From a virus (lineage: Duplodnaviria > Heunggongvirae > Uroviricota > Caudoviricetes), in the IMG/VR virus record IMGVR_UViG_2609460332_000008: 64,000 nt of DNA; one strand, 5' to 3'. Positions 16,084 to 61,824 of this stretch are shown piece by piece (positions within the stretch are counted from its first letter, which is position 1; every line of letters starts with the position of its first letter). A model generated the notes under the pieces. It saw only the letters and a program-made list of their open reading frames with translations, did not search any database and was not told the origin of the DNA. The translations under genes and the position numbers were made by a program.

Positions 16084-16154
16084 GACTCTGCCTTTTGAAA
16101 GGCAGTTAAAAGGGCATTCACAACGCCTTTTAACTGCAATTTACGGATGACGGG

Positions 16155-18019: not shown

Positions 18020-18068
18020 GTCAGTCTCCGTCGTTTGGGGTTACCGACGGTCAGTATGCGGAAGGCAG

Positions 18069-18090
18069 AAAAAAAGCCGGATTTACCGGC
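18069..18090 (-). terminator. Rho-independent terminator between F-like and I-like genes
   Basis: Minus-strand hairpin GCCGG-TAAAT-CCGGC followed by a U7 run; 26-nt sequence identical to 25804..25829. Confidence 0.6.
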
Positions 18091-18232
18091 TTCACTGAAA
18101 ACGGGAAAATACCCCCTTCAAAACCCCTTCAAAAACGCCACAGCATCTTCAAAAACGTCAGAATGCACATTCACGCCATCAGAATAAAAAACGCGTTTCT
18201 GATGCGTTTCAGGGGGATTTGCGGCGGGAGGG

Positions 18233-18997: not shown

Positions 18998-20561
18998 GGC
19001 CGGTGTCCCCCAGCGCACGCGCCTTAAAGCACACCTCCGCCAGTTGCAGGGCAAAGTCGTCCGCGTTCAGCGTTTCCTGAAGCTCAGGCAGACGTTTCAG
19101 AAAGTCATCAAAACTGTCGCATTCCTGCGCCAGTGTCAGCACCGGGTTCGTGAACACCTCGCCGGTTTTCTGCCAGTCACGCAGGGCATCATCCACCATC
19201 AGCGCCAGTTCGTCGGAGTGTTCACGGTTCAGGGCGACGCGCTCGCGGTTCATCGCCACATCACCTGACATTCCGGCAGACACCGGATGCAGAACATCAG
19301 CCCCGTCGTCCGGTTCAGCCAGGCCGAACCGGTCCCGCAGCTCCGATTCCTGAACCCGCATCCCCCGGTCAATCAGCGGCACCAGAGCATCTGTCAGCGC
19401 CTTCAGATCTTCCGCTTCACTGATACGCAGAACAACACGGGGGTAGTGCGCCTGTGGCCCGTAGTTGGCCTCGATGTAGGGCCGCACCAGATATTCATTC
19501 AGCGTGTTAGCCAGCTGCCGCGCGTCCCAGCGCACAATGTCCATGCGCACCTGATTGTGCACGTCCGCCTGTGAACGCGAACTGCCGTTATCCGTGGTCA
19601 TGGTCTGCCCCAGCACAGCCTTACTGATTTGCGCATCACACCATTCCGCCATTTCACGGAACAGTGCGCCGCCGTTATTCCGGCTGGCGGTTTCCTTCAT
19701 TTCCAGTTGCATGGACTGCGGAATGGCACACCCGGCATCCGAGGCAATGGAAGCAATCGCATCAATCAGCACGCGGATTTGCTCCTCCGTGGCGTTGGGG
19801 CCGTATTTCCCCACTGTAACCGGAATGCCGAACTTTTCCGCAAATGCCCACCAGTCGCGCACGGTAAAGGATTTCAGCATGTACATCACCGCCACCAGAC
19901 GGGCCAGACCGTTACGCAGCGGCAGACCGGATTTCAGGCGCGGCTGGTGAACAATGAATTTTCCCGGTGTCAGCGGTACGCCATCCACCGGTTCATCGTC
20001 AGTCAGCAGGCGGAACTGGCGCAGCGTGGTTTTTTCGGCTTTCAGAAAACGGGGATCAACCCACTCATAATCACGGGGCATCCAGTGGTTTTTGTGGGTA
20101 TTCCACAGGATTTCACAGACCGCCACGCCTTTTCCCAGCCCGTCGAGCAAATCAAACATCAGTTCGGGGATTTGCGGGGCTTCCATCAGTGCACGGATGG
20201 CGTCCGCCAGTTGCACGTCAGCATCGTCATCACTGGCGGCCACCACCACCGGTTCGATACCCGCCACCGTCAGCTTGCGGGTGCGCAGCACCGAGGCGTA
20301 ATGCAAATCACGTTCTTCCATCTCTTCGGCAAGGATAAAAAAATCACGCGTGATGCCGTCGGCGGCATTGCGCAGAATGCCTGCCAGCCTGCCGGGATTC
20401 AGCCCGGAAGCAATGCTGATGCCCGGCGAGGCCGAACGTACGCCAGCCTGACGCGGGCGGGCCTGTGCTTCATTGAGCGCCTCTTTTTTCAGGGTGTCGC
20501 CCTCGCCGGTTGTCGGGTTCAGCAAATGACGAACATCCCCGGTCTGTTGTTTCAGGTTCAC
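18990..20561 (-). CDS. Portal protein (Mu H / gp29-like)
   Basis: 523-aa ORF downstream of the terminase large subunit gene. Confidence 0.7.
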   Translation of the reverse strand: MNLKQQTGDVRHLLNPTTGEGDTLKKEALNEAQARPRQAGVRSASPGISIASGLNPGRLAGILRNAADGITRDFFILAEEMEERDLHYASVLRTRKLTVAGIEPVVVAASDDDADVQLADAIRALMEAPQIPELMFDLLDGLGKGVAVCEILWNTHKNHWMPRDYEWVDPRFLKAEKTTLRQFRLLTDDEPVDGVPLTPGKFIVHQPRLKSGLPLRNGLARLVAVMYMLKSFTVRDWWAFAEKFGIPVTVGKYGPNATEEQIRVLIDAIASIASDAGCAIPQSMQLEMKETASRNNGGALFREMAEWCDAQISKAVLGQTMTTDNGSSRSQADVHNQVRMDIVRWDARQLANTLNEYLVRPYIEANYGPQAHYPRVVLRISEAEDLKALTDALVPLIDRGMRVQESELRDRFGLAEPDDGADVLHPVSAGMSGDVAMNRERVALNREHSDELALMVDDALRDWQKTGEVFTNPVLTLAQECDSFDDFLKRLPELQETLNADDFALQLAEVCFKARALGDTGHA

Positions 20562-22093
20562 AGTAAACCTCCCTCATTTTTCAGGCCGCGTGTCAGCTTC
20601 ATCTGGCGGCGCGTGTTGCCTTCTTCCGGTTTCGCCGGGCGGTTCAGGCGGTGCAGCTCGTAACGGTGGCAGTCATCCTTGCTGGCAAGGAAGCCCAGGA
20701 AAATGGCCACAGCGGCGTCGCCGTGACGCTTGCGGCCATCACTACCTTTAGTACGGGCATCGTCAATGCCGGGAACACCACGCAGTAACTGAATGGCCCC
20801 GAGGTCATTGATCACGTCTTCATGCTTCGGAAGGATCAGCTCATCATCTTCAAACGCTGCACGGAAACGGGGCATGTTTTCGCGGTAGAACGCCACGGAC
20901 AGCATCACCTGTTCCACCTCATCGCCGTACCGCTCCGCCGCCTGTTCTGCCAGATACTGACCATTCCCCCGTGCATCCATTTTGATACCGTCACGACGGG
21001 GCAGACGATCGCAAAGCCAGAACAGCACCTGCTCCTGCTGTTTAAACGGCACATTGCCAAGCTCAACCAGGAACGGCACCTCGCGGGTGGTGTCATCGTT
21101 CACCGTCACCGGGGCCAGTACGGTCAGGTCACCCGAACGCGCAAAGTCTTCCCCCAGACAGTGGCGCAGGTTCTTCGGGAGTTTTTCCAGCTCGGGACGC
21201 ACCACTGTTTCCAGCCATTCCCGGATATCTGCCCGGCGCTGACTTTCCGTCAGTGCGTTAAATTCCGGTGTGCCGGTAAAGCGCAACACTTTTCCGGTGC
21301 CACGGGCCGCACGTTCACGCAGTGAGCGGGGGATATACGTGCCGCCGCCGTTTTTCGGGACGCAGTAATATTCCTCCAGGGCGTCTTCGCGGGTGGCGGT
21401 ATTTCGCAGCAGGCCTTCTTTCCATTCCGCTTCGGCTTCCGGTGACCACACCATGCCGCGCACCTGACAGATACGCCGGTACAGCCCGTCATTGCAGGCG
21501 TCATCCAGCGTGATGGTGTGAATGCGGTAATCCCGTTTTCCTGCGCGGCTTTCCAGAATCAGCTGGTTAAACAGGTTGTCCACGCCGTCATGGGTGGAAA
21601 TAAGGCGAATTTTTCCGCCCCATGTTTTCAGCGGCAGCACAGCCTTCAGCAGCTCGTCCAGTTTTTCATGGAACGCGGCCTCGTCGATGGTGACATTCCC
21701 CTGCATCCCGCGAATGTTGCTCGGGTTGCTGGACAGTGCCTTGACCTTAAAACCGCTGGCGAAGTACACGACGAACGTCAGAATGTCCTTGTCTTCGTCG
21801 GTGATCACTTCCTCGCAGATTTCTTCCGCTGCCGCATTAAACGCTTTCGCCCACATCGCCACGGCGTCGATAAATTCGCGGGCCATCTCCTTATTCGAAC
21901 CGATATAAAAGTGATCGCGCCCGCCGAATTCCTTCTTCAGTGATGCAGTCAGTGCCGCATCTGCCGCCTCCGCCCAGGTTAAACCGGTACGGCGGGATTT
22001 CTCGGCGATTTTCAGGTCGGCATCATCCGCCACCCAGCGTTTCTGATACGGCAGCAGAACATCGGATTCACTGAACGTGTTCATCTGTGTCAT
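20558..22093 (-). CDS. Terminase large subunit (Mu gp28-like)
   Basis: 511-aa ORF upstream of the portal gene. Confidence 0.7.
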   Translation of the reverse strand: MTQMNTFSESDVLLPYQKRWVADDADLKIAEKSRRTGLTWAEAADAALTASLKKEFGGRDHFYIGSNKEMAREFIDAVAMWAKAFNAAAEEICEEVITDEDKDILTFVVYFASGFKVKALSSNPSNIRGMQGNVTIDEAAFHEKLDELLKAVLPLKTWGGKIRLISTHDGVDNLFNQLILESRAGKRDYRIHTITLDDACNDGLYRRICQVRGMVWSPEAEAEWKEGLLRNTATREDALEEYYCVPKNGGGTYIPRSLRERAARGTGKVLRFTGTPEFNALTESQRRADIREWLETVVRPELEKLPKNLRHCLGEDFARSGDLTVLAPVTVNDDTTREVPFLVELGNVPFKQQEQVLFWLCDRLPRRDGIKMDARGNGQYLAEQAAERYGDEVEQVMLSVAFYRENMPRFRAAFEDDELILPKHEDVINDLGAIQLLRGVPGIDDARTKGSDGRKRHGDAAVAIFLGFLASKDDCHRYELHRLNRPAKPEEGNTRRQMKLTRGLKNEGGLL

Positions 22094-22692
22094 GCGCTAA
22101 TCCCCAGAAGTTCACGTTTGATGGTGTCAGCCGCACCGCCTGACAGACCGCCCGTTCTGACCAGTTCTTCGGTTTTCTCTGCCATCTCCTGCGCAAACGC
22201 ATCGCGGATCGCTTTCTCGCGTTTATGGCTGGTCATGGCTGCCGCTTCCAGACGTTGGGCAACCAGCGCCAGTTGGCCCAGCGCCTTCGGTGCAACAGGT
22301 TTGTCATCTTCTGCCATCGACATGGACGTTTCAAAGGCCAGCGTTTTTACAAACTCCATCAGCAGCTTGCCGACGTCTGACGTCGGCGCGGAACCCAGCT
22401 TTGCCGCCCAGACTTCGGCCATTTCGCGGGAGGCGCGGATTTTGGCCCCGACTTTTTCCATGCGGATGGCATAGCGGTTTAAGCCCGTCCGGCTTAACTG
22501 CATCTCTTCCGGCAGGTTATGTTCGTCAATCAGGGCGTTGATGGCTTCGCGGATTTCTTCCTGTGTGTGCCGCTTTTCCCGCAGCATCTGATGCAACTGC
22601 TCCCGGATGCTGTCCGGGAGTAAATCCACTTTGGAAAGACGGCCACGGGTGGGGCGTTGTTCATTTTCCATGTGTGCCCTCCTGTTGCTCAC
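22090..22692 (-). CDS. Terminase small subunit-like DNA-binding protein (Mu gp27-like)
   Basis: 200-aa basic/acidic ORF overlapping the terminase large subunit start. Confidence 0.55.
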   Translation of the reverse strand: MSNRRAHMENEQRPTRGRLSKVDLLPDSIREQLHQMLREKRHTQEEIREAINALIDEHNLPEEMQLSRTGLNRYAIRMEKVGAKIRASREMAEVWAAKLGSAPTSDVGKLLMEFVKTLAFETSMSMAEDDKPVAPKALGQLALVAQRLEAAAMTSHKREKAIRDAFAQEMAEKTEELVRTGGLSGGAADTIKRELLGISA

Positions 22693-22808
22693 TACGCTGT
22701 GAACTTTCGTATGCAGATTTCAGCGCGCCACTCTGGATTTCACGCCATGTCAGGTTGTGCGCCAGACGGCGGAGTTCATCACGGGACGCTTTACTTATCG
22801 GATTCTTT

Positions 22809-23108
22809 TTACGGTTCACGACGGCCCCCGTCTTCAGTTCCCGGTGTTTTCAGACCGGCGTATATTTCTTCGCGAACGGAGCGGATATCCTTACCCAGCA
22901 GCTTCCACAGCCGCGCACATGCCGGTGATGAACGCAGGGCACGTTTCATGGGGGTATCCGGTGCATCCGGGTTCCAGGGCTTTCCGGTCTGTTGTTCGTA
23001 TGCACGGACAATGGCGTTTTGCTCAATATCTGCCAGCACAAGGCAGTACGCCAGTTGCCGCACGACGGCCCGTTCTCCGCGACTTAACGGCTTCAGTTTT
23101 CGGGCCAT
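22809..23108 (-). CDS. Hypothetical protein (99 aa)
   Basis: ORF in the late region between lysis genes and terminase; no recognisable motif. Confidence 0.4.
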   Translation of the reverse strand: MARKLKPLSRGERAVVRQLAYCLVLADIEQNAIVRAYEQQTGKPWNPDAPDTPMKRALRSSPACARLWKLLGKDIRSVREEIYAGLKTPGTEDGGRREP

Positions 23109-23110
23109 GC

Positions 23111-23404
23111 TCAGTCCCTCGCACGGGGTTTTTTAACGCCCGGAACGCTGGACAGGCCGTTTGCCACATCCTCGCCGCTGCCGGTGATTTCAGCCACGTA
23201 ACAGCCGCCCACATCAGACAGACGAACCAGCCCCTGCTCGCGCAGCCATGCAAGCTGGGTGCGCACCACATCACGGGATACCTTATGACCGTAGGCCTGA
23301 AGGCAGGTCTGCAACACGGATTCATTCGCGCTGTCGCCACAGTCCAGCAGGGAACGCAGCAACACAAGACGACGGTCTTCAGTGAGGATCTCTTTCATCG
23401 CCAT
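23111..23404 (-). CDS. Hypothetical protein (97 aa)
   Basis: ORF tightly packed with neighbours. Confidence 0.4.
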   Translation of the reverse strand: MAMKEILTEDRRLVLLRSLLDCGDSANESVLQTCLQAYGHKVSRDVVRTQLAWLREQGLVRLSDVGGCYVAEITGSGEDVANGLSSVPGVKKPRARD

Positions 23405-23709
23405 TATTTTTTTTCCTTTAACTCGTTCTCTAATAACAAATCGCTGATGCGGGATACCTGGCGGATGGATGGCCCCAGCTCTTTGATTTCTCCCCGCAGG
23501 TTGCTGATATCCAGTTGCAGGCGGTGGAACTCATCACGGTCGGGTAAATGGTGTACCTGGCTTTCCATCACCGACATGCGGGAACGGAGTGAATCAAACT
23601 CTTCGCGTTTGACGTAGGTTTTCGCCAGAATCAGCTGAAGCAGGTTTATTCCTGTCATCAGCAATGCCCACAGAATGGGCCAGTTGGCTCTGATCATTTC
23701 CCAGGACAC
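23404..23709 (-). CDS. Membrane-anchored coiled-coil protein (101 aa), possible lysis accessory protein
   Basis: N-terminal hydrophobic segment WPILWALLMTGINLLQLILA followed by a charged coiled-coil region. Confidence 0.4.
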   Translation of the reverse strand: MSWEMIRANWPILWALLMTGINLLQLILAKTYVKREEFDSLRSRMSVMESQVHHLPDRDEFHRLQLDISNLRGEIKELGPSIRQVSRISDLLLENELKEKK

Positions 23710-23921
23710 GTTTTCCTCCTGCGTTCCCGCATCTGCTGACAGTCAATACAGGTCACCACATCCGGCAGCGCCGCAAGGCGCTGTGCCGGAATAACGTTCC
23801 CGCAGTCATTGCAGAAGCCCCGGCTGTGGGGCGCTTCTTTTGCCCGCGTCTGCCAGGCTTTAACGACGCTCTGACGCTCGTTCAGAACCACTTCACTGAT
23901 GCGGTCGATTTCGTCGGTCAT
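23694..23921 (-). CDS. TraR/DksA-family C4 zinc-finger protein (75 aa)
   Basis: CNDCGNVIP...CIDCQ four-cysteine motif in a small basic protein. Confidence 0.6.
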   Translation of the reverse strand: MTDEIDRISEVVLNERQSVVKAWQTRAKEAPHSRGFCNDCGNVIPAQRLAALPDVVTCIDCQQMRERRRKTCPGK

Positions 23922-24526
23922 TTCGGCCCCGCAGACATTTTGTGACGGCTCGATTTGCTGTAACGGGCAAAACCGTCAAGGGTTCTTACGCCGAGATAGC
24001 CCAGCGCCGGGGTAAGCAACATCAGCGTGATATCCCAGTCCGGTGACGGCATATGCAGCGAGATACCTCTGGCACAGGCAATGGCTCCGGCAATCTGGCC
24101 GCAGGAGAGCAACAGCACATAGGCCAGACTGCTGTAACAGGAAAGGCGGGCCAGCAGCGGGCGCGTCTGGCGCACATAGCTGTCCGTGGCGTTGTCACCA
24201 TTGCGGATGGTTTCCTGCTGTTCGTGGTGTGCGGCCTGCTGGTCAGCCAGCACCAGCTTCTGCCGTTCCACCTCCAGCTGTTGCAGCTGAATTTTCAGGG
24301 TTTCCAGTTGCACCAGTTGCTCCGGTGACAGCATCACCAGTTTTTGTTCCAGAATGCGTTGCTGTTCAGCAACGGGAAGGCTTTCCCGGACGCTTTCCAC
24401 CATACCGGCCACCGAGTCAGCGGCGGCAGATGTACTGCCACCAAACCAGCGCCCGACGGAACGAATCAGCCCCGGCCCGGCTTTCAGCAGAACAGAGGCG
24501 ATGCCTGAAAGGGTTAACGGATCCAC
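23918..24526 (-). CDS. Lysis-associated membrane protein with central coiled coil and C-terminal transmembrane segments (203 aa, GTG start)
   Basis: GTG at 24524-24526 preceded by GGAGG; coiled-coil LEQKLVMLSPEQLVQLETLKIQLQQLEVERQKL; two C-terminal hydrophobic segments. Confidence 0.45.
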   Translation of the reverse strand: MDPLTLSGIASVLLKAGPGLIRSVGRWFGGSTSAAADSVAGMVESVRESLPVAEQQRILEQKLVMLSPEQLVQLETLKIQLQQLEVERQKLVLADQQAAHHEQQETIRNGDNATDSYVRQTRPLLARLSCYSSLAYVLLLSCGQIAGAIACARGISLHMPSPDWDITLMLLTPALGYLGVRTLDGFARYSKSSRHKMSAGPK

Positions 24527-24939
24527 GGGAAACCTCCATACAGATAACGCTGAAGACAGAGCAGACCGCCGCAACTGCCACCACACAGCCAGAACACCGG
24601 ATGCACCGGTGACATCATCATCAGCGTGCTGAAGACGCAGCAGAAATATCCCAGCGCCCAGACCACCCATGACCACACGATGATGTGGCGACCAAAAGCC
24701 CGGTAACGGACCTCAGGCAGCAGGCGAAATGGCACATTCCCGAGGCTTGCGCTGTATGAAAACAACACCACCCCGGCAAAGGACAACAACATCAACACGA
24801 ACGATCGCCAGCCACATAACATGCTGATGATGAACATGCAGAGTGTCAGTCCGGCCAGCGGCCATGGGGTTCTCATCAGTCGGGAACAAAGCAGCCAGTC
24901 ACACAGTTTTAAAATTTTGTTCATTACCTTTTTCCACAT
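24514..24939 (-). CDS. Multi-pass membrane protein (start uncertain; may begin at a later Met near 24876)
   Basis: Strongly hydrophobic segments (LTLCMFIISMLCGW, VLMLLSFAGVVLFSY, VVWALGYFCCVFSTLMMM); N-terminal part of the long ORF is probably not coding. Confidence 0.45.
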   Translation of the reverse strand: MWKKVMNKILKLCDWLLCSRLMRTPWPLAGLTLCMFIISMLCGWRSFVLMLLSFAGVVLFSYSASLGNVPFRLLPEVRYRAFGRHIIVWSWVVWALGYFCCVFSTLMMMSPVHPVFWLCGGSCGGLLCLQRYLYGGFPWIR

Positions 24940-25150
24940 TGAATTTTTCCCTGTACTTCTGGCACTGCCAGAAAATGTCCCGTGTATCCACGGAGTTCCA
25001 GCCACGCATGTAGTAGCTGGCGTGTGTGCCGTCATGGCCGGTATAGTCCAGCGGTTTCGGGGGCGGACCTCCGGCCATGCGGTGCAGAACCTCCTGACGC
25101 AGGCGGTCACGCCGCCCGGCTTTCAGTGAGGCATCCCAGCCTTTGCCCAT
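24899..25150 (-). CDS. Hypothetical protein (83 aa) immediately downstream of the lysozyme-like gene
   Basis: ATG adjacent to the upstream stop; Trp/Tyr-containing soluble-type sequence. Confidence 0.4.
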   Translation of the reverse strand: MGKGWDASLKAGRRDRLRQEVLHRMAGGPPPKPLDYTGHDGTHASYYMRGWNSVDTRDIFWQCQKYREKFNVEKGNEQNFKTV

Positions 25151-25151
25151 A

Positions 25152-25748
25152 TCACCCCCGCGTGGCGGACATGATGCCCAGAGGGGTATCGATGATTTCC
25201 AGACAGGCGTCGGTCAGTTTTTCCATGCGGTTAAACCAGCCGTTCAGGTATTTACCCTGGGCGGGTTTTGACTTGATGATGTCGGCATAAAAGCGGGAAC
25301 GACGGACAATGCAGCGGGCCAGCAACCAGTCCGGGGTGAACAGACTCACGGCCTTACGGGTACGTGGGCCGATGATGCCGTCAGCATCCACATCAGCGGC
25401 TTCCTGCAAAATTTTGATGGCTTTTTTAACGCCATGCTGAACCGCTGCATCGAACACAAACATCGCCACGCCATCAGGCCACTGGTCACATCCGGCAGGC
25501 AGCCAGTAATCGCGCCAGTAAATCTGCGCGACCTGTTCGCGGGTTAAATCCTTAATGCGGGTATCCGGTTTGCCGTCGCCGTTGACATCGGTTTTGCCGT
25601 CAATCACACCGTCGCGGCGGTCAGAAATGCCGTATTTGGTTTCGCCGCCACGGTCAGTGGGGTCATTGACATAGACGCCTTCGATATCGGGACGCAGAAT
25701 GAAATTCAGCGCATGCTCAAAGGCCGGGGAGAATTTTTGATTTTCCAT
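25152..25748 (-). CDS. Peptidoglycan hydrolase, GH108-like lysozyme with peptidoglycan-binding C-terminus (putative endolysin)
   Basis: Motif EGVYVNDPTDRGGETKYGIS typical of the GH108 muramidase family; first gene after the early-operon terminator. Confidence 0.6.
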   Translation of the reverse strand: MENQKFSPAFEHALNFILRPDIEGVYVNDPTDRGGETKYGISDRRDGVIDGKTDVNGDGKPDTRIKDLTREQVAQIYWRDYWLPAGCDQWPDGVAMFVFDAAVQHGVKKAIKILQEAADVDADGIIGPRTRKAVSLFTPDWLLARCIVRRSRFYADIIKSKPAQGKYLNGWFNRMEKLTDACLEIIDTPLGIMSATRG

Positions 25749-25803
25749 AAAAGCACCTGTGAAGCAGATTTAAACGTGGTCTGCTTCATGGTGCCGGAGG
25801 CAT

Positions 25804-25825
25804 AAAAAAAGCCGGATTTACCGGC
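25804..25825 (-). terminator. Rho-independent terminator at the end of the early operon
   Basis: Minus-strand hairpin GCCGG-TAAAT-CCGGC followed by U7, directly after the Mor/C-like gene stop. Confidence 0.65.
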
Positions 25826-25833
25826 TTCATTGA

Positions 25834-26283
25834 TTAAGGGCGTCGTGGCGGACGACGAACGGGGTGAGGCAGGTTCGGGGAGGGGTAAAACAAATCCGGC
25901 TGGTATTTATTGCGCTCCAGACGTCGCATCCGTTTGATGGCCTTGTAGACGGTTTTATACGTCACCCCGTAACGCTGAACCAGTTCAGGAATATTATGGC
26001 CGTTAAAATCACGCCAGATACGCATATCCCGGACAAGATTCTCCAGAATATTCCCCCTCGGAACATAAACCTGCATCCCGCCGATATGGCGACAAATCGC
26101 CACAACCAGCTCAAGGGAATGGGCAGGGTCTGCACCAATCCGGGCCAGTTCTTTACGCAGCAGTGCGTTCAGTTCAGAAAGTAACGCCGGATAAGCGGTG
26201 TTTTCCTGGTAATCATGAAGATATTCCAGAACGCTGTCGTCCCGAAGGTCTTCGAATAAATCCTGCTCTTTCATCTGTTTCAT
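25834..26283 (-). CDS. Mor/C-family transcriptional activator (149 aa)
   Basis: C-terminal region IWRDFNGHNIPELVQRYGVTYKTVYKAIKRMRR resembles the Mor/C helix-turn-helix region; ATGA start/stop overlap with gemA. Confidence 0.65.
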   Translation of the reverse strand: MKQMKEQDLFEDLRDDSVLEYLHDYQENTAYPALLSELNALLRKELARIGADPAHSLELVVAICRHIGGMQVYVPRGNILENLVRDMRIWRDFNGHNIPELVQRYGVTYKTVYKAIKRMRRLERNKYQPDLFYPSPNLPHPVRRPPRRP

Positions 26284-26831
26284 ACAGCAATTCTCCCGCT
26301 GTTTCGTGCGCGGGCATACGCACTGGTCAGTGCATCATAGCCGCGCAGCTCCCGCCCGGTTTCGCTCACAGGTAAAGGCACACCATGTCGGGCAAAGGCT
26401 TCCCGGATGCAGCGCATATGCCACTGTTTGAGCGTTTCGAGCACAATCTGCAACGATTCCCCGTGACACCATGCCAGCGTGGAAACACCCTGACCGCCAT
26501 TACGTCTGGCCGTCAGGCGTTCAACGTATTTGTCCAGCGCGGCGTCGCTGATATCGGAAACGAAACCATCAAGGAACATCTGCTGCCAGATTTTGTAAAT
26601 CTTCTCGCGCGGTGTGACATGCCCCTTAAAGCGACGGCGGGGATGTTTTTTCTGCTTCTTAAAACCGCGCTCTTTCATGGCATCGAGCACCTGTTCCAGT
26701 TGTGCGACAGTCAGCTCGCGGCAACTGGTCTTGCCTGTGCACTGCACCAGAAAGGCGCGGTAAGTGTCATCGTCGAGTTGTAGATCACGACGGGCGACAT
26801 GAATTAATTTAATCAGGGATGTGCGATTCAT
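26280..26831 (-). CDS. gemA: GemA-like protein (Mu gp16 family)
   Basis: MNRTSLIKLIHVARRDLQLDDDTYRAFLVQCTGK... in the gemA position ahead of the Mor/C-family gene; identity assigned from recollection, so the symbol is tentative; start at ATG 26829-26831 with GGAGG upstream. Confidence 0.55.
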   Translation of the reverse strand: MNRTSLIKLIHVARRDLQLDDDTYRAFLVQCTGKTSCRELTVAQLEQVLDAMKERGFKKQKKHPRRRFKGHVTPREKIYKIWQQMFLDGFVSDISDAALDKYVERLTARRNGGQGVSTLAWCHGESLQIVLETLKQWHMRCIREAFARHGVPLPVSETGRELRGYDALTSAYARARNSGRIAV

Positions 26832-26904
26832 TATCGTACCTCCAGAAAAGGGGGCGGTGCGGCAACACCGCCAGAATCCACTCACTAAACAGAGGAAGCT
26901 TTTT

Positions 26905-27171
26905 ATGAAAAACAGTGAACAACCTTATGATGTTGCAGGGTATACCATTGCCTCAAGGTTGCTGATACTCCTTGTCAGAAAGGGGCTGATTACCGCAGAG
27001 GAAGGAAAAACAATCCTCAAATCCGCTGCAGTCGTAGCTGCAGAGGCTCCGGTATTGAGAACAACGAATGATTCCGCCCTGCAAATATCGCAGCTAATCA
27101 CTGAAACCATCAGTTTGTTAGACCAAGATCCTGATGAATATCAAAAGCCTCAGCCATCTGAGCATCCGTAA
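26905..27171 (+). CDS. Candidate opposite-strand small protein (88 aa) in a gap of the Mu early operon
   Basis: ATG at 26905 preceded by AGGAAG at 8-nt spacing; protein-like composition; competes with a 61-aa minus-strand ORF (26925..27110). Confidence 0.3.
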   Translation: MKNSEQPYDVAGYTIASRLLILLVRKGLITAEEGKTILKSAAVVAAEAPVLRTTNDSALQISQLITETISLLDQDPDEYQKPQPSEHP

Positions 27172-27424
27172 GAATATCTTTATTTGATAGCCCCAGCCTG
27201 CGACGAATGTATTCCTCGCGGGCTGCTTCATTTTGTAGCGCCACGGCAGCTTCCACCTGGTTCATTTCACGGTTAATAATGCTCCGGACTTCTCTGGCGG
27301 TGAGGTCATGCTCAATACCATATTTAACGATATCGTGCATACGTTCCAGCATCTTTAAATTAGCCATGACGCCATCAATATCAACTGGTGTGAATTTCAT
27401 TTCTTTATTCTCTGGTTTATTCAT
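27110..27424 (-). CDS. Hypothetical early-region protein (about 105 aa)
   Basis: ORF in the semi-essential early region; start placed at internal Met MNKPENKEMKF. Confidence 0.4.
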   Translation of the reverse strand: MNKPENKEMKFTPVDIDGVMANLKMLERMHDIVKYGIEHDLTAREVRSIINREMNQVEAAVALQNEAAREEYIRRRLGLSNKDILTDAQMAEAFDIHQDLGLTN

Positions 27425-27599
27425 TTCGTAATACCTCTTCGCAATAAAAGATTTCACTGGGATAACGTTTTTGTATGCGCTCCATCACCTGCATACATGC
27501 CTGTTCTGTGGGCCAGATTTTTTCCGTTACCGGAATGGCATCGCAGGCATCATTCCCACAGGTGCCAACCAGCAGGACAAAGCCAATTGACTTAATCAT
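27417..27599 (-). CDS. Small putative lipoprotein (about 60 aa)
   Basis: MIKSIGFVLLVGTCGNDAC signal peptide with a lipobox-like LVGTC. Confidence 0.4.
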   Translation of the reverse strand: MIKSIGFVLLVGTCGNDACDAIPVTEKIWPTEQACMQVMERIQKRYPSEIFYCEEVLRNE

Positions 27600-28131
27600 G
27601 CTCGCTGATTTCCTGTGTTTCCGCCGGAACCGGTGAATAATCAAGAATGAGATAGCGCAGGACGTGGTCGGTGATATTCCAGCCACTGGAACCACAAATA
27701 AAGCGCCCCAGCCGGATATCGATATACGCCATCACAAAACGGGGCATCCCCTGTTTGCACATCTCGTCATCCACTTCAGCAACGATGTAAACCGACTCGC
27801 AGGTCAGTACGCCTGTCGCAAATTCTTTTGCCAGTGCCGGAATTGCATTGCCTTCCAGCCAGGGCAAAGAGCGGCGGAACGCACACCATTGAGCATCATC
27901 AACAGCGGGGTGCTCCGTTGCGTTTCGTCTTACAGGAGGCGTCGGACGAGGGCGCGGAACATCATAAAATCCGTTGCATTCTGTCAGCATTCCGGCATCA
28001 ACCGCATCACGCAGGAAATACACCATTGACGAGGGAGGCATCTTCATTTTTTCAGCCAGAACGCCACAGGTCAGACGCCCGTAAGCCCGTAATAATGTGC
28101 TGACACCGTTCAGAACTTTTGCATCAACCAT
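27592..28131 (-). CDS. Hypothetical early-region protein (179 aa)
   Basis: ORF downstream of gam in the early operon. Confidence 0.45.
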   Translation of the reverse strand: MVDAKVLNGVSTLLRAYGRLTCGVLAEKMKMPPSSMVYFLRDAVDAGMLTECNGFYDVPRPRPTPPVRRNATEHPAVDDAQWCAFRRSLPWLEGNAIPALAKEFATGVLTCESVYIVAEVDDEMCKQGMPRFVMAYIDIRLGRFICGSSGWNITDHVLRYLILDYSPVPAETQEISEHD

Positions 28132-52526: not shown

Positions 52527-52949
52527 ATGTTCCTGAAAACCGAATCATTTGAATATAACGGCGTGACCGTCACGCTTTCTGAACTGTCAGCCCTGCAGCG
52601 TATTGAGCATCTTGCCCTGATGAAACGGCAGGCAGAACCGGCGGGATCCGACAGCAACCGGCAGGTTACTGTGGAAGACGTCATCAGAACCGGCGCGTTT
52701 CTGGTGGCGATGTCCCTGTGGCATAACCATCCGAAGAAGACGCAGATGCCGTCCATGAATGAAGCCGTTAAACAGATTGAGCAGGAAGTGCTTACCACCT
52801 GGCCCACAGAGGCAATTTCTCATGCTGAAAACGTGGTGTACCGGCTGTCCGGTATGTATGAGTTTGTGGTGAATAATGCCCCCGAACAGGCAGAGGACGC
52901 CGGGCCTGCAGAGCCTGTTTCTGCGGGAAAGTGTTCGACGGTGAGCTGA
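52527..52949 (+). CDS. G: Tail assembly chaperone G
   Basis: 140 aa MFLKTESFEYNGVTVTLSELSALQRIEHLALMKRQAEPAGSDSNRQ... Confidence 0.95.
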   Translation: MFLKTESFEYNGVTVTLSELSALQRIEHLALMKRQAEPAGSDSNRQVTVEDVIRTGAFLVAMSLWHNHPKKTQMPSMNEAVKQIEQEVLTTWPTEAISHAENVVYRLSGMYEFVVNNAPEQAEDAGPAEPVSAGKCSTVS

Positions 52950-53365
52950 GTTTTGCCCTGAAACTGGCGCGTGAGATGGGGCGACCCGACTGGCGTGCCA
53001 TGCTTGCCGGGATGTCATCCACGGAGTATGCCGACTGGCACCGCTTTTACAGTACCCATTATTTTCATGATGTTCTGCTGGATATGCACTTTTCCGGGCT
53101 GACGTACACCGTGCTCAGCCTGTTTTTCAGCGATCCGGATATGCATCCGCTGGATTTCAGTCTGCTGAACCGGCGCGAGGCTGACGAAGAGCCTGAAGAT
53201 GATGTGCTGATGCAGAAAGCGGCAGGGCTTGCCGGAGGTGTCCGCTTTGGCCCGGACGGGAATGAAGTTATCCCCGCTTCCCCGGATGTGGCGGACATGA
53301 CGGAGGATGACGTAATGCTGATGACAGTATCAGAAGGGATCGCAGGAGGAGTCCGGTATGGCTGA
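52527..53365 (+). CDS. T: Tail assembly chaperone G-T fusion product (made by -1 frameshift at 52925..52931)
   Basis: T frame open from 52931 to 53365 with no independent ribosome-binding context; lambda G-T architecture. Confidence 0.85.
52925..52931 (+). other. Programmed -1 ribosomal frameshift slippery heptamer G GGA AAG (G to G-T fusion)
   Basis: GGGAAAG in the G zero frame 18 nt before the G stop; the -1 frame continues as VFDGELSFALKLAREMGRPDW (T). Confidence 0.9.
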
Positions 53366-55919
53366 ACCGGTAGGCGATCTGGTCGTTGATTTGAGTCTGG
53401 ATGCGGCCAGATTTGACGAGCAGATGGCCAGAGTCAGGCGTCATTTTTCCGGTACGGAAAGTGATGCGAAAAAAACAGCGGCAGTCGTTGAACAGTCGCT
53501 GAGCCGACAGGCGCTGGCTGCACAGAAAGCGGGGATTTCCGTCGGGCAGTATAAAGCCGCCATGCGTATGCTGCCTGCACAGTTCACCGACGTGGCCACG
53601 CAGCTTGCAGGCGGGCAAAGTCCGTGGCTGATCCTGCTGCAACAGGGGGGGCAGGTGAAGGACTCCTTCGGCGGGATGATCCCCATGTTCAGGGGGCTTG
53701 CCGGTGCGATCACCCTGCCGATGGTGGGGGCCACCTCGCTGGCGGTGGCGACCGGTGCGCTGGCGTATGCCTGGTATCAGGGCAACTCAACCCTGTCCGA
53801 TTTCAACAAAACGCTGGTCCTTTCCGGCAATCAGGCGGGTCTGACGGCAGATCGTATGCTGGTCCTGTCCAGAGCCGGGCAGGCGGCAGGGCTGACGTTT
53901 AACCAGACCAGCGAGTCACTCAGCGCACTGGTTAAGGCGGGGGTAAGCGGTGAGGCTCAGATTGCGTCCATCAGCCAGAGTGTGGCGCGTTTCTCCTCTG
54001 CATCCGGCGTGGAGGTGGACAAGGTCGCTGAAGCCTTCGGGAAGCTGACCACAGACCCGACGTCGGGGCTGACGGCGATGGCACGCCAGTTCCATAACGT
54101 GACGGCGGAGCAGATTGCGTATGTTGCTCAGTTGCAGCGTTCCGGCGATGAAGCCGGGGCATTGCAGGCGGCGAACGAGGCCGCAACGAAAGGGTTTGAT
54201 GACCAGACCCGCCGCCTGAAAGAGAACATGGGCACGCTGGAGACCTGGGCAGACAGGACTGCGCGGGCATTCAAATCCATGTGGGATGCGGTGCTGGATA
54301 TTGGTCGTCCTGATACCGCGCAGGAGATGCTGATTAAGGCAGAGGCTGCGTTTAAGAAAGCAGACGACATCTGGAATCTGCGCAAGGATGATTATTTTGT
54401 TAACGATGAAGCGCGGGCGCGTTACTGGGATGATCGTGAAAAGGCCCGTCTTGCGCTTGAAGCCGCCCGAAAGAAGGCTGAACAGCAGAGTCAACAGGAC
54501 AAAAATGCGCAGCAGCAGAGCGATACCGAAGCGTCACGGCTGAAATATACCGAAGAGGCGCAGAAGGCTTACGAACGGCTGCAGACGCCGCTGGAGAAAT
54601 ATGCCGCCCGTCAGGAAGAACTGAATAAGGCCCTGAAAGACGGAAAAATCCTGCAGGCAGATTACAACACGCTGATGGCGGCAGCGAAAAAGGACTATGA
54701 AACGACACTGAAAAAGCCGAAGCAGTCCGGCGTGAAGGTGTCTGCGGGCGATCGTCAGGAAGACAGTGCTCATGCTGCCCTGCTGACGCTTCAGGCTGAA
54801 CTCCGGACGCTGGAGAAGCATGCCGGAGCAAATGAGAAAATCAGCCAGCAGCGCCGGGATTTGTGGAAGGCGGAGAGTCAGTTCGCGGTACTGGAGGAGG
54901 CGGCGCAACGTCGCCAGCTGTCTGTACAGGAGAAATCCCTGCTGGCGCATAAAGATGAGACGCTGGAGTACAAACGCCAGCTGGCTGCACTTGGCGACAA
55001 GGTTACGTATCAGGAGCGCCTGAACGCGCTGGCGCAGCAGGCGGATAAATTCGCACAGCAGCAACGGGCAAAACGGGCCGCCATTGATGCGAAAAGCCGG
55101 GGGCTGACTGACCGGCAGGCAGAACGGGAAGCCACGGAACAGCGCCTGAAGGAACAGTATGGCGATAATCCGCTGGCGCTGAATAACGTCATGTCAGAGC
55201 AGAAAAAGACCTGGGCGGCTGAAGACCAGCTTCGCGGGAACTGGATGGCAGGCCTGAAGTCCGGCTGGAGTGAGTGGGAAGAGAGCGCCACGGACAGTAT
55301 GTCGCAGGTAAAAAGTGCAGCCACGCAGACCTTTGATGGTATTGCACAGAATATGGCGGCGATGCTGACCGGCAGTGAGCAGAACTGGCGCAGCTTCACC
55401 CGTTCCGTGCTGTCCATGATGACAGAAATTCTGCTTAAGCAGGCAATGGTGGGGATTGTCGGGAGTATCGGCAGCGCCATTGGCGGGGCTGTTGGTGGCG
55501 GCGCATCCGCGTCAGGCGGTACAGCCATTCAGGCCGCTGCGGCGAAATTCCATTTTGCAACCGGAGGATTTACGGGAACCGGCGGCAAATATGAGCCAGC
55601 GGGGATTGTTCACCGTGGTGAGTTTGTCTTCACGAAGGAGGCAACCAGCCGGATTGGCGTGGGGAATCTTTACCGGCTGATGCGCGGCTATGCCACCGGC
55701 GGTTATGTCGGTACACCGGGCAGCATGGCAGACAGCCGGTCGCAGGCGTCCGGGACGTTTGAGCAGAATAACCATGTGGTGATTAACAACGACGGCACGA
55801 ACGGGCAGATAGGTCCGGCTGCTCTGAAGGCGGTGTATGACATGGCCCGCAAGGGTGCCCGTGATGAAATTCAGACACAGATGCGTGATGGTGGCCTGTT
55901 CTCCGGAGGTGGACGATGA
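53358..55919 (+). CDS. H: Tail tape measure protein H
   Basis: 853 aa, same length as lambda gpH; MAEPVGDLVVDLSLDAARFDEQMARVRRHFSGTESDAKK... Confidence 0.95.
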   Translation: MAEPVGDLVVDLSLDAARFDEQMARVRRHFSGTESDAKKTAAVVEQSLSRQALAAQKAGISVGQYKAAMRMLPAQFTDVATQLAGGQSPWLILLQQGGQVKDSFGGMIPMFRGLAGAITLPMVGATSLAVATGALAYAWYQGNSTLSDFNKTLVLSGNQAGLTADRMLVLSRAGQAAGLTFNQTSESLSALVKAGVSGEAQIASISQSVARFSSASGVEVDKVAEAFGKLTTDPTSGLTAMARQFHNVTAEQIAYVAQLQRSGDEAGALQAANEAATKGFDDQTRRLKENMGTLETWADRTARAFKSMWDAVLDIGRPDTAQEMLIKAEAAFKKADDIWNLRKDDYFVNDEARARYWDDREKARLALEAARKKAEQQSQQDKNAQQQSDTEASRLKYTEEAQKAYERLQTPLEKYAARQEELNKALKDGKILQADYNTLMAAAKKDYETTLKKPKQSGVKVSAGDRQEDSAHAALLTLQAELRTLEKHAGANEKISQQRRDLWKAESQFAVLEEAAQRRQLSVQEKSLLAHKDETLEYKRQLAALGDKVTYQERLNALAQQADKFAQQQRAKRAAIDAKSRGLTDRQAEREATEQRLKEQYGDNPLALNNVMSEQKKTWAAEDQLRGNWMAGLKSGWSEWEESATDSMSQVKSAATQTFDGIAQNMAAMLTGSEQNWRSFTRSVLSMMTEILLKQAMVGIVGSIGSAIGGAVGGGASASGGTAIQAAAAKFHFATGGFTGTGGKYEPAGIVHRGEFVFTKEATSRIGVGNLYRLMRGYATGGYVGTPGSMADSRSQASGTFEQNNHVVINNDGTNGQIGPAALKAVYDMARKGARDEIQTQMRDGGLFSGGGR

Positions 55920-56245
55920 AGACCTTCCGCTGGAAAGTGAAACCCGGTATGGATGTGGCTTCGGTCCCTTCTGTAAGAAAGGTGCGCTTTGGTGATGGCT
56001 ATTCTCAGCGAGCGCCTGCCGGGCTGAATGCCAACCTGAAAACGTACAGCGTGACGCTTTCTGTCCCCCGTGAGGAGGCCACGGTACTGGAGTCGTTTCT
56101 GGAAGAGCACGGGGGCTGGAAATCCTTTCTGTGGACGCCGCCTTATGAGTGGCAGCAGATAAAGGTGACCTGCGCAAAATGGTCGTCGCGGGTCAGTATG
56201 CTGCGTGTTGAGTTCAGCGCAGAGTTTGAACAGGTGGTGAACTGA
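55916..56245 (+). CDS. M: Tail tip protein M
   Basis: 109 aa MKTFRWKVKPGMDVASVPSVRKVRFGDGYSQRAPAGLNANLKTYSV... Confidence 0.95.
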   Translation: MKTFRWKVKPGMDVASVPSVRKVRFGDGYSQRAPAGLNANLKTYSVTLSVPREEATVLESFLEEHGGWKSFLWTPPYEWQQIKVTCAKWSSRVSMLRVEFSAEFEQVVN

Positions 56246-56942
56246 TGCAGGATATCCGGCAGGAAACACTGAATGAATGCACCCGTGCGGAGCAGTCGGC
56301 CAGCGTGGTGCTCTGGGAAATCGACCTGACAGAGGTCGGTGGAGAACGTTATTTTTTCTGTAATGAGCAGAACGAAAAAGGTGAGCCGGTCACCTGGCAG
56401 GGGCGACAGTATCAGCCGTATCCCATTCAGGGGAGCGGTTTTGAACTGAATGGCAAAGGCACCAGTACGCGCCCCACGCTGACGGTTTCTAACCTGTACG
56501 GTATGGTCACCGGGATGGCGGAAGATCTGCAGAGTCTGGTCGGCGGAACGGTGGTCCGGCGTAAGGTTTACGCCCGTTTTCTGGATGCGGTGAACTTCGT
56601 CAACGGAAACAGTTATGCCGATCCGGAGCAGGAGGTGATCAGCGCTGGCGCATTGAGCAGTGCAGCGAACTGAGCGCGGTGAGTGCCTCCTTTGTACTGT
56701 CCACGCCGACGGAAACGGATGGCGCTGTTTTTCCGGGACGTATCATGCTGGCCAACACCTGCACCTGGACCTATCGCGGTGACGAGTGCGGTTATAGCGG
56801 TCCGGCTGTCGCGGATGAATATGACCAGCCAACGTCCGATATCACGAAGGATAAATGCAGCAAATGCCTGAGCGGTTGTAAGTTCCGCAATAACGTCGGC
56901 AACTTTGGCGGCTTCCTTTCCATTAACAAACTTTCGCAGTAA
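56245..56942 (+). pseudogene. L: Tail tip protein L, disrupted by an apparent 1-bp deletion (frameshift near 56641)
   Basis: ORF 56245..56673 (142 aa) stops early; the remainder continues in another frame from GTG 56679 to 56942; the two parts together span the length of lambda L minus 1 bp. Confidence 0.7.
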
Positions 56943-56946
56943 TCCC

Positions 56947-57690
56947 ATGACACAGACAGAATCAGCGATTCTGGCGCACGCCCGGCGATGTGCGCCAGCG
57001 GAGTCGTGTGGCTTCGTGGTGAGAACGCCGAAGGGGGAAAGATATTTTCCCTGCGTGAATATCTCCGGTGAGCCGGAGGCGTATTTCCGGATGTCGCCGG
57101 AGGACTGGCTGCGGGCAGAGATGCAGGGTGAGATTGTGGCGCTGGTCCACAGCCACCCCGGTGGTCTGCCCTGGCTGAGTGAGGCTGACAGGCGGCTGCA
57201 GGTGCAGAGCGATTTGCCGTGGTGGCTGGTCTGCCGGGGTGAGATTCATAAATTCCGCTGTGTGCCGCATCTTACCGGGCGGTGCTTTGAGCACGGGGTG
57301 ACGGACTGTTACACGCTGTTCCGGGATGCTTATCATCTGGCGGGGATTGAGATGCCGGATTTTCATCGCGGGGATGACTGGTGGCGTCACGGTCAGAATC
57401 TCTATCTGGATAATCTGGAGGCCACAGGGCTGTATCAGGTGCCGTTGTCATCAGCACAACCGGGCGATGTGCTGCTGTGCTGTTTTGGTTCATCGGTGCC
57501 GAATCATGCCGCCATTTACTGTGGTGATGGCGAGCTGCTGCACCATATTCCTGAACAACTGAGCAAACGAGAGAGGTATACCGACAAATGGCAGCGACGC
57601 ACACACTCCCTCTGGCGTCACCGGGCATGGCGCGCATCTGCCTTTACGGGGATTTACAACGATTTGGCCGCCGCATCGACCTTCGTGTGA
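56947..57690 (+). CDS. K: Tail tip assembly protein K (MPN/JAB plus NlpC/P60-like); the canonical lambda annotation starts at the internal ATG 57091
   Basis: MTQTESAILAHARRCAPAESCGFVV...; HSHPGG (JAB-like) and VTDCYTLF / HAAIY (NlpC/P60-like Cys/His) motifs. Confidence 0.85.
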   Translation: MTQTESAILAHARRCAPAESCGFVVRTPKGERYFPCVNISGEPEAYFRMSPEDWLRAEMQGEIVALVHSHPGGLPWLSEADRRLQVQSDLPWWLVCRGEIHKFRCVPHLTGRCFEHGVTDCYTLFRDAYHLAGIEMPDFHRGDDWWRHGQNLYLDNLEATGLYQVPLSSAQPGDVLLCCFGSSVPNHAAIYCGDGELLHHIPEQLSKRERYTDKWQRRTHSLWRHRAWRASAFTGIYNDLAAASTFV

Positions 57691-58229
57691 AAACGGGGGC
57701 TGAAGCCATCCGGGCGCTGGCCACACAGCTCCCGGCGTTTCGTCAGAAACTGAGCGACGGCTGGTATCAGGTACGGATTGCCGGGCGTGATACAGGTGAA
57801 ACGGAATTATCAGCCCGTCTTAATGAACCGCTGGCAAATGGTGCTGTGATCCATATCGTGCCGCGTCTGGCAGGAGCCAAAAGTGGCGGTGTGTTTCAGG
57901 CTGTGCTGGGGGCGGCTGTTATGGCGGTTGCTATATGGATGCCGGGGGTAGGAATTATGGCGAGTAATCTGCTGTTTTCTCTCGGTGCCAGTATGACGCT
58001 TGGCGGTGTTGCACAGATGCTGGCCCCTAAACCCAGAACCCCCCGCACACAGACAACGGATAACGGCAAACAGAACACCTATTTTTCTTCACTGGATAAT
58101 ATGGTTGCCCAGGGCAATGTTCTGCCCGTTCTGTACGGTGAAATGCGCGTGGGATCACGTGTGGTATCTCAGGAGATCAGCACAGCAGATGAAGGTGATG
58201 GTGGTCAGGTTGTGGTGATTGGTCGCTGA
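57588..58229 (+). CDS. I: Tail tip assembly protein I (30-bp in-frame deletion relative to lambda)
   Basis: 213 aa MAATHTLPLASPGMARICLYGDLQRFGRRIDLRVKTGAEAIRALATQLPAF...; lambda I is 223 aa. Confidence 0.9.
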   Translation: MAATHTLPLASPGMARICLYGDLQRFGRRIDLRVKTGAEAIRALATQLPAFRQKLSDGWYQVRIAGRDTGETELSARLNEPLANGAVIHIVPRLAGAKSGGVFQAVLGAAVMAVAIWMPGVGIMASNLLFSLGASMTLGGVAQMLAPKPRTPRTQTTDNGKQNTYFSSLDNMVAQGNVLPVLYGEMRVGSRVVSQEISTADEGDGGQVVVIGR

Positions 58230-58289
58230 TGAAAAACGTTTTATGTGAAACCGCCTCCGGGCGGTTTTATCGTTTATGGAGCATGACGA

Positions 58290-61200
58290 ATGGGTAAAGG
58301 CAGCAGTAAGGGGCATACCCCGCGCGAAGCGAAGGACAACCTGAAGTCCACGCAGCTGCTGAGTGTGATCGATGCCATCAGCGAAGGGCCGGTTGAAGGT
58401 CCGGTGGATGGATTAAAAAGCGTGCTGCTGAACAGTACGCCGGTGCTGGACAGTGAGGGGAATACCAATATATCCGGCGTCACGGTGGTGTTCCGGGCCG
58501 GTGAGCAGGAGCAGTCACCGCCGGAGGGATTTGAATCCTCCGGCTCCGAGACGGTGCTGGGTACGGAAGTGAAATATGACACGCCGATCACCCGGACCAT
58601 CACGTCGGCAAACATCGACCGTCTGCGCTTTACCTTCGGTGTACAGGCACTGGTGGAAACCACCTCAAAGGGAGACAGGAATCCGTCGGAAGTTCGCCTG
58701 CTGGTTCAGATACAGCGTAACGGTGGCTGGGTGACGGAAAAAGACATCACCATTAAGGGCAAAACCACCTCGCAGTATCTGGCCTCGGTGGTGGTGGATA
58801 ACCTGCCGCCGCGCCCGTTTAATATCCGGATGCGCAGGATGACGCCGGACAGCACCACAGACCAGCTGCTGAACAAAACGCTCTGGTCGTCATACACCGA
58901 AATCATCGATGTGAAACAGTGCTACCCGAACACGGCACTGGTTGGCGTGCAGGTGGACTCGGAGCAGTTCGGCAGCCAGCAGGTGAGCCGTAATTATCAT
59001 CTTCGCGGGCGCATTCTGCAGGTGCCGTCGAACTATAACCCGCAGACGCGGCAATACAGCGGTATCTGGGACGGAACGTTAAAACCGGCATACAGCAACA
59101 ACATGGCCTGGTGTCTGTGGGATATGCTGACCCATCCGCGCTACGGCATGGGGAAACGTCTTGGTGCGGCGGATGTGGATAAATGGGCGCTGTATGTCAT
59201 CGGCCAGTACTGCGACCAGTCGGTGCCGGACGGCTTTGGCGGCACGGAGCCGCGCATTACCTGTAATGCGTACCTGACCACACAGCGCAAGGCGTGGGAT
59301 GTGCTCAGTGATTTCTGCTCGGCGATGCGCTGTATGCCGGTATGGAACGGGCAGACGCTGACGTTCGTGCAGGACCGACCATCAGATAAGGTGTGGACCT
59401 ATAACCGCAGTAATGTGGTGATGCCGGATGATGGCGCGCCGTTCCGCTACAGCTTCAGCGCCCTGAAGGACCGCCATAATGCCGTTGAGGTGAACTGGAT
59501 TGACCCGGATAACGGCTGGGAGACGGCGACAGAGCTCGTGGAGGATACGCAGGCCATTGCCCGTTACGGCCGTAACGTCACGAAGATGGATGCCTTTGGC
59601 TGTACCAGCCGGGGGCAGGCACACCGCGCCGGGCTGTGGCTGATTAAAACGGAGCTGCTGGAAACGCAGACCGTGGACTTCAGCGTGGGTGCTGAAGGGC
59701 TTCGCCATGTACCGGGGGATGTCATTGAAATCTGCGATGATGACTATGCCGGTATCAGCACCGGTGGTCGTGTGCTGGCGGTGAACAGCCAGACCCGGAC
59801 GCTGACGCTCGACCGTGAAATCACGCTGCCATCCTCCGGTACCACGCTGATAAGCCTGGTTGACGGAAGTGGCAATCCGGTCAGCGTGGAGGTTCAGTCC
59901 GTCACCGACGGCGTGAAGGTGAAAGTGAGCCGTGTTCCTGACGGTGTTGCTGAATACAGCGTATGGGGGCTGAAGCTGCCGACGCTGCGCCAGCGACTGT
60001 TCCGCTGCGTGAGTATCCGTGAAAACGACGACGGCACGTATGCCATCACCGCCGTGCAGCATGTGCCGGAAAAAGAGACCATCGTGGATAACGGGGCGCA
60101 CTTTGACGGCGAACAGAGTGGCACGGTGAATGGTGTCACGCCGCCCGCGGTGCAGCACCTGACCGCAGAAGTCACCGCAGACAGCGGGGAATATCAGGTG
60201 CTGGCGCGATGGGACACACCGAAGGTGGTGAAGGGGGTGAGCTTTATGCTTCGCCTGACCGTGGCAGCGGATGACGGCAGTGAGCGGCTGGTCAGCACGG
60301 CCAGGACGACGGAAACCACATACCGCTTCAGGCAACTGGCGCTGGGGAACTACAGGCTGACAGTCCGGGCGGTAAATGCGTGGGGGCAGCAGGGGGATCC
60401 GGCGTCGGTATCGTTCCGGATTGCCGCACCGGCAGCGCCATCGCGGATTGAGCTGACGCCGGGCTATTTTCAGATAACCGCAACGCCGCATCTTGCCGTT
60501 TATGATCCGACGGTACAGTTTGAGTTCTGGTTCTCGGAAAAGCGGATTGCGGATATCAGGCAGGTTGAAGCCAGCGCGCGTTATCTTGGTACGGCGCTGT
60601 ACTGGATAGCCGCCAGTATCAATATCAAACCGGGCCATGATTATTATTTTTACATTCGCAGTGTGAACACCGTTGGCAAATCGGCATTTGTGGAGGCTGT
60701 TGGCCAGCCGAGTGATGATGCATCCGGCTATCTGGATTTTTTCAAAGGAGAGATAGGGAAAACCCATCTGGCTCAGGAGTTGTGGACGCAGATTGATAAC
60801 GGTCAGCTTGCGCCTGACCTGGCTGAAATCAGGACGTCCATTACGGATGTCAGCAATGAAATCACGCAGACCGTCAATAAGAAACTGGAAGACCAGAGTG
60901 CAGCGATCCAGCAGATACAGAAGGTTCAGGTTGATACAAATAATAACCTGAACAGCATGTGGGCTGTGAAGCTGCAGCAGATGCAGGACGGACGCCTTTA
61001 TATCGCGGGTATTGGTGCCGGTATTGAGAATACCCCTGACGGTATGCAGAGTCAGGTGCTGCTGGCGGCGGACAGGATTGCGATGATTAATCCTGCGAAT
61101 GGCAATACAAAGCCGATGTTTGTTGGGCAGGGCGATCAGATATTCATGAACGAAGTGTTCCTGAAATATCTGACGGCTCCCACCATTACCAGCGGTGGCA

Positions 61201-61772
61201 ATCCCCCAACGTTTTCACTGACACCTGATGGTCGACTTTCTGCGAGAAATGCGGATATCAGCGGTAACGTGAATGCGAACTCCGGGACGCTCAATAATGT
61301 CACGATTAACCAGAACTGTCGGATTCTGGGAAAACTGTCAGCTAACCAGATTGAAGGTGATATTGTCAAAACGGTGGGAAAAGCCTTTCCGAGAAATGGC
61401 AGTTATGCCAGCGGTACAATAACGGTCACTGTGTACGATGACCAGGCTTTTGACCGTCAGATAGTCGTCCCCCCCGTTCTGTTTCGCGGTGGTAAGCATG
61501 AAAACTTCAACAGCAACAACCAACAGTCATACTGGTATTCAACCTGTAAGCTGCAGGTGCTGAAGAACGGACAGGAAATCTTTCAGCAACCCGCGACGGA
61601 TGTCAGCAGGGTATTTTCATCAGTCATTGATATGCCTGCCGGACACGGCCATGTCACCCTGACTTTCAATGTTTCTTCATATGGTGCAAATAACTGGACG
61701 CCAACGACCAGTATCAGCGACCTTCTTGTTGTCGTGATGAAGAAATCAACAGCCGGCATCAGTATCAGTTGA
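58290..61772 (+). CDS. J: Central tail fibre / host specificity protein J, with divergent longer C-terminus
   Basis: 1160 aa starting [42 protein letters not shown]...; lambda J is 1132 aa. Confidence 0.9.
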
Positions 61773-61824
61773 ATTTTAAAACCCAAATTCGGGCACCAGA
61801 AATGGTGCCTTTTTTATTTGTGGA

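Follow-up and report, generated by a model that had tools for sequence, protein, structure and literature searches.

The tail-tip protein gpL of phage lambda is composed of an N-terminal HDI beta-sandwich, given as residues 1-166, and a C-terminal iron-binding domain of residues 154-232, in which Cys173, Cys182, Cys205 and Cys212 are the ligands of a [4Fe-4S] cluster (PMC10721106). Three known situations are relevant to a lambda-like tail gene with a broken reading frame. The stf gene of laboratory lambda PaPa carries a frameshift (PMC10721106), a case of prophage decay. In lambda G/GT the frames are joined by a programmed -1 ribosomal frameshift. Draft assemblies retain residual indel errors, among them single-base losses in mononucleotide runs.

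The locus described here was analysed in a window of 64,000 nucleotides, the whole stretch of DNA in IMG/VR virus record IMGVR_UViG_2609460332_000008. In the 2013-era draft GCA_000529615.1 the window is contig CBWJ010000074.1, and window positions equal contig positions minus 2. Its lambda-like tail gene L lacks a single base and is split into two open reading frames. The split is probably a systematic sequencing artefact and not biological.

Gene L and the position of the missing base

Gene order in the window was H-M-L-K-I-J, as in lambda, with L lying between M and K (taken from the ORF list and from the identical region as annotated by PGAP in E. coli 4/1-1). The deposited L measured 698 bp, whereas lambda L (J02459 13429..14127) and every close relative measure 699 bp, in agreement with the initial annotation, which had found L to be 1 bp shorter than its lambda counterpart. 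In place of the single frame of about 232 codons that encodes lambda gpL, the record holds, through a 1-bp deletion, a 142-aa and an 87-aa ORF, and the two ORFs into which L had been reported to be split were both located there (Table 1).

The earlier proposal that L has one C fewer than its lambda counterpart was borne out by an alignment of eight sequences. The missing base lies at ...GTGATCAG[C]CGCTGG..., L nt 399/400 (lambda 13827/13828), and is flanked by the codons Ser133 (AGC) and Arg134 (CGC). Addition of a C after window position 56643 gave a 699-nt ORF of 232 aa. This C was the sole difference between the window L and the L allele of E. coli 4/1-1. The intact 4/1-1 allele was identical to lambda gpL (PDB 8IYK chain L) at 231 of 232 residues (E = 4.6e-160), the single substitution being M95L, and it matched the lambda gpL chains of PDB 8IYK, 8IYL, 8K35, 8XCG and 9E7M. 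The lesion belongs to the class of single-base losses within a mononucleotide run (CC to C), and the run is short.

Most of the HDI beta-sandwich falls in ORF1. ORF2 carries the whole iron-sulfur domain with all four cluster cysteines, and precomputed matches to PF05100 (Phage_tail_L) were present on both ORFs. Residues 134-145 of gpL (RWRIEQCSELSA) are coded in neither. With the domain limits of PMC10721106, the break is therefore placed inside the HDI domain, which it separates from the iron-sulfur domain. The TGA of ORF1 and the GTG of ORF2 are 5 nt apart, and no convincing ribosome-binding site was seen in the sequence 5' of the GTG.

A functional split, either by programmed -1 ribosomal frameshifting as in lambda G/GT or by assembly of the two halves into a working gpL, is extremely improbable. 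The shift needed to rejoin the L frames is -1, as in G/GT; both fragments keep their Phage_tail_L matches, and the stop codon of ORF1 closely precedes the start codon of ORF2. However, unlike in G/GT, no slippery heptamer of the form X XXY YYZ was found in 56565..56673 (+), the sole stretch in which a -1 slip rejoins the frames, and none of the complete-genome relatives searched shared the frameshift, the relatives having a single 699-bp frame. Programmed frameshifting was rejected on these two grounds. A functional two-piece gpL is judged very unlikely from the sequence, since it would lack 12 residues of the HDI beta-sandwich (134-145) and no recognisable ribosome-binding site precedes the GTG.

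Table 1. Positions of the L reading frames and of the other prophage features discussed in the text
Feature	Window position	Strand	4/1-1 locus	Description
Gene L	56245..56942	+		698 bp
L ORF1	56245..56673	+		142 aa, ATG start; gpL residues 1-133 and 9 out-of-frame residues (AGALSSAAN), then TGA
L ORF2	56679..56942	+		87 aa, GTG start, frame -1 relative to ORF1; gpL residues 146-232 from Val146
Missing-base site	56643..56644	+		CAGCCGCTG in relatives, CAGCGCTG in the window; one C of CC absent
Mu-like prophage	640..34209	inverted		33,570 bp; insertion relative to 4/1-1
Target duplication (CCAGC)	635..639 and 34210..34214			5 bp, flanking the Mu-like prophage
MuB	29914..30852	-		Mu-like prophage
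MuA	30890..32947	-		Mu-like prophage
c repressor	33279..33869	+		Mu-like prophage
Interrupted inverse-autotransporter gene	1..639 and 34210..35756		3492..7757	cargo gene of the lambdoid prophage
iss	about 40954..41247		12955..13248	bor homologue
Side-tail-fibre gene	61831..about 63850		33833..35854	downstream of J
sitABCD	past window end		36527..39976	flanked by the tail-fibre region and the duplicated icd fragment

The lambdoid prophage and the nested Mu-like prophage

The alignment of window 34210..64000 with E. coli 4/1-1 (NZ_CP023844) covered 29,792 columns and was free of mismatches; its one gap was the L deletion. In 4/1-1 the lambdoid prophage is integrated at icd, carries sitABCD and iss, and extends over ~48 kb from icd to a duplicated icd fragment. 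This prophage is the one common among ST131/LF82-type strains. The head and tail genes of 4/1-1 are all intact according to PGAP, except the side-tail-fibre gene. This gene was annotated by PGAP as two partial pseudogene pieces, comprising an N-terminal tail-fibre domain and a head-spike-fibre domain, and by another gene caller as a single ORF of 673 aa; it seems to be a fibre gene that arose by fusion or rearrangement.

A Mu-like prophage is nested in the lambdoid one in inverted orientation (Table 1). Its ends are of Mu type (TGAAGCGGCGCACGAAAAACGCG... at 640, ...CGTACTTCTCGTGAATCAATACA at 34209), and a 5-bp target duplication flanks it. The insertion lies in a cargo gene that the lambdoid prophage carries for an inverse autotransporter (IAT_beta/Big_1). 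The interrupted gene has 357-bp tandem repeats (Big_1/Invasin_D3 units), and intact versions in other strains encode 1183, 1302 or 1421 aa, lengths that differ in steps of one repeat.

From end to end, the Mu-like prophage shared 99.4% identity with one in E. coli KFu019, and no gap in the alignment shifted a reading frame. Being complete and free of frameshifts, it may be active, as judged from sequence. Its likeness to phage Mu at the DNA level was confined to the com/mom/right-end segment (about 89%).

Lambda-size heads have an established upper limit on the length of DNA that can be packaged. The ~48-kb element together with the Mu-like insertion amounts to ~81.5 kb, which from the lambda packaging limits would be beyond the capacity of such a head. 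In the window strain the lambdoid prophage would thus already be unpackageable through the Mu-like insertion. The initial annotation had regarded every other head and tail gene as intact in an otherwise functional module. The first part held at the sequence level (0 mismatches to 4/1-1, in which PGAP gives all but the side-tail-fibre gene as intact), but 'otherwise functional' had to be given up in view of the nested 33,570-bp Mu-like prophage.

The window assembly and a sister draft

The exact 142-aa ORF1 product was on record in two contigs only, that of the window (GCA_000529615.1) and CBWR010000058.1 (GCA_000529555.1). The names attached to the two products are E. coli ISC41 and IS35, and their adjacent accessions point to drafts from one project. 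Compared with 4/1-1, the sister contig CBWR010000058.1 contained six 1-bp indels, the L deletion included, and 0 substitutions over 20.4 kb. Four of its five private indels were homopolymer length changes (T3>T4, A7>A6, T5>T6, A5>A6), and the private indels split genes Z, H and I. Indels of this homopolymer type indicate that the sequencing of the project makes indel errors. It is advisable to regard frameshifted genes in the GCA_000529555.1 assembly as probable errors.

No second indel error was found in the window assembly over ~63 kb, made up of the 29.8 kb compared with 4/1-1, with 0 further differences, and the 33.6-kb Mu-like part compared with KFu019, with no frameshifting gap. A single leftover consensus indel in about 63 kb is unremarkable in a draft of this kind.

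The ORF across the Mu-insertion junction, taken from its first start codon, was not on record; its 501-aa form, the alpha/beta hydrolase and MuB are widespread, and the matches listed for them were to longer contigs. A 145-aa and a 43-aa gene call at the Mu ends were on record for the window assembly only and not for the sister draft, which suggests that the sister strain may be without the Mu insertion.

These observations bear on whether the deletion is a real and very recent -1 frameshift that inactivated gpL in a prophage lineage common to ISC41 and IS35, a reading that is possible but doubtful. If real, the lesion would leave an ORF1 product that lacks the whole [4Fe-4S] domain as well as the last part of HDI; the gpJ/gpL hub would remain unassembled, and on induction heads but no functional tails would be formed. 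The deletion is common to two separately assembled genomes, as an inherited mutation would give, and one of these is free of other indel errors over about 63 kb. The run at the L site is two bases of C and the lesion thus differs in class from the errors of the sister draft, which fall chiefly in A/T runs at least 3 bases long. In the window strain the prophage would already be disabled by the Mu-like insertion, hence selection on L would be relaxed. The two Mu-end gene calls absent from the sister record hint at different strains with a common deletion.

Against a real mutation stands the scant time available: 0 substitutions in 29.8 kb imply very little evolutionary time, so that a real indel is unlikely a priori. 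The sequencing of the project, as the sister contig shows, makes indel errors. The frameshifted L product was not found in the Logan assemblies of public reads, a weak point since the reads were perhaps never deposited.

The stf lesion of lambda PaPa offers a parallel to a real mutation: in both cases a morphogenetic module that is otherwise lambda-like has a tail gene thrown out of frame by one base. The difference is that experiments have established the stf lesion, in the gene for a fibre that the phage can do without, whereas tail-tip assembly requires L and the L lesion is putative.

Distribution of the deleted and intact forms

Among 5,426 complete E. coli genomes the intact form (exact 65-mer) was present in 1,631 records and the deleted form (exact 64-mer) in 0. 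The deleted form had 0 matches in the GTDB species representatives. With the 698-bp L as query, no record of the phage collection matched at 100%, and the best matches listed all spanned 699 bp.

Further cases were sought by a look-up of the 87-aa ORF2 product and by a scan of metagenome and IMG/VR collections with the deleted 24-mer. The same C deletion was found in five other contigs, namely ENA human-gut NODE contigs (L035; L038, which equals L045; L044; L046) and IMG/VR UViG_3300003862_000001 (L043). Since the deleted form itself served to retrieve the metagenome contigs, their count may in part be ascertainment from large noisy data and alone is no proof of a hotspot.

The k-mer coverage of the ENA NODE contigs was 0.46-2.9. 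Divergence was 2-13%, both between the five contigs and the window and among the contigs, and the L deletion must therefore have arisen repeatedly and not by descent. An inherited allele spreading among phages was considered for the metagenome cases and rejected, because the backgrounds are 2-13% apart and the contigs are full of frameshifts.

All five contigs contained many more uncompensated 1-bp deletions, which broke H, M, L, K and J. The extra deletions were mostly in C/G runs, often a C run followed by G (CCG contexts), like the L site. Their density in the low-coverage contigs was roughly one per 0.4-1.7 kb, and L035 had eight such indels in 3.3 kb when compared with its closest complete genome (98.9% identical). 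Besides L, identical deletion sites were common to contigs at 4/1-1 locus 27526, 28283, 30198 and 31699; at least 4 identical sites would arise by random placement on C/G runs with P about 1e-4. Data of this kind can thus be taken to hold site-specific systematic deletion artefacts. Across samples and phage backgrounds, deletions recurred at these four sites and at 28644.

The 9-mer CAGCCGCTG occurs elsewhere in the window in two lambdoid and two Mu-part copies, and all four are intact. A simple 9-mer rule for the error consequently fails, and the local context alone does not force an error. The same intact copies count in favour of a real mutation at L. The distribution counts against one: the deletion is found in 0 of the 5,426 complete genomes, and the identical deletion is seen on at least five unrelated backgrounds in error-laden data only, as expected of a site prone to artefactual loss.

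Repeated occurrence could also reflect a biological -1 hotspot: without its central C, the interrupted inverted repeat CAGC-C-GCTG becomes the perfect palindrome CAGCGCTG, and the same frameshift would recur in different lambdoid prophages in nature. This is very improbable. The deletion is seen on six or more different L backgrounds, and the perfect 8-bp palindrome that it yields can be read directly from the sequence. However, complete genomes gave 0 exact deleted matches against 1,631 intact, and every recurrent case lies in a contig where essential genes are broken by many further homopolymer deletions. Quasi-palindrome correction needs the formation of a hairpin, and arms of 4 bases with a 1-base spacer would, from the known mechanism, be unable to form one. 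Only if this improbable reading held would the CAGC-C-GCTG site be a real and predictable route by which gut E. coli domesticates lambda-like prophages with useful cargo, here sitABCD and iss.

Interpretation of the L deletion

The initial annotation had left two readings, a recent inactivating mutation or a sequencing error. Both survive, with the evidence leaning to error. Its description of the error as of homopolymer type stood in part: an error is favoured, but the run is merely a CC dinucleotide and no long homopolymer.

The preferred reading, a systematic sequencing artefact, would consist of a site-specific undercall in which CC was read as C and which persisted in the consensus of both drafts (GCA_000529615.1 and GCA_000529555.1). 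In that case the real prophage would encode an intact 232-aa gpL identical to the ST131/LF82-type allele, and the base would presumably be present in the actual DNA. On comparison of the sequences at hand, the case leans towards such an artefact through the absence of the deletion from all complete genomes searched and its recurrence on unrelated backgrounds in error-laden data only, together with the lack of substitutions in 29.8 kb and the indel errors of the project.

The L deletion resembles the residual indel errors of draft assemblies in being a single-base loss in a mononucleotide run that is confined to the drafts of one project and to noisy metagenome contigs. Many such errors, some of them at identical sites, occur in the sister draft and the metagenome contigs. 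The L deletion differs from them in the two-base length of its run and in the absence of a second error in the window assembly over about 63 kb, and these two points, with the sharing of the deletion by separately assembled genomes, stand against an artefact.

No evidence found supports programmed frameshifting of L. If the deletion is an artefact, it would be a caution that single-base frameshifts in old drafts can recur at one site across data sets. Frameshifts of this kind that are without read-level support should not be counted as prophage decay, and systematic base-calling deletions in low-coverage metagenome contigs could inflate counts of pseudogenes. If the deletion is real, it would be one more private inactivating mutation, without new biology, in a prophage already incapacitated by a nested Mu-like element. 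Under both leading readings, a sequencing artefact, which is the likelier, or routine prophage decay, the split of L is ordinary.
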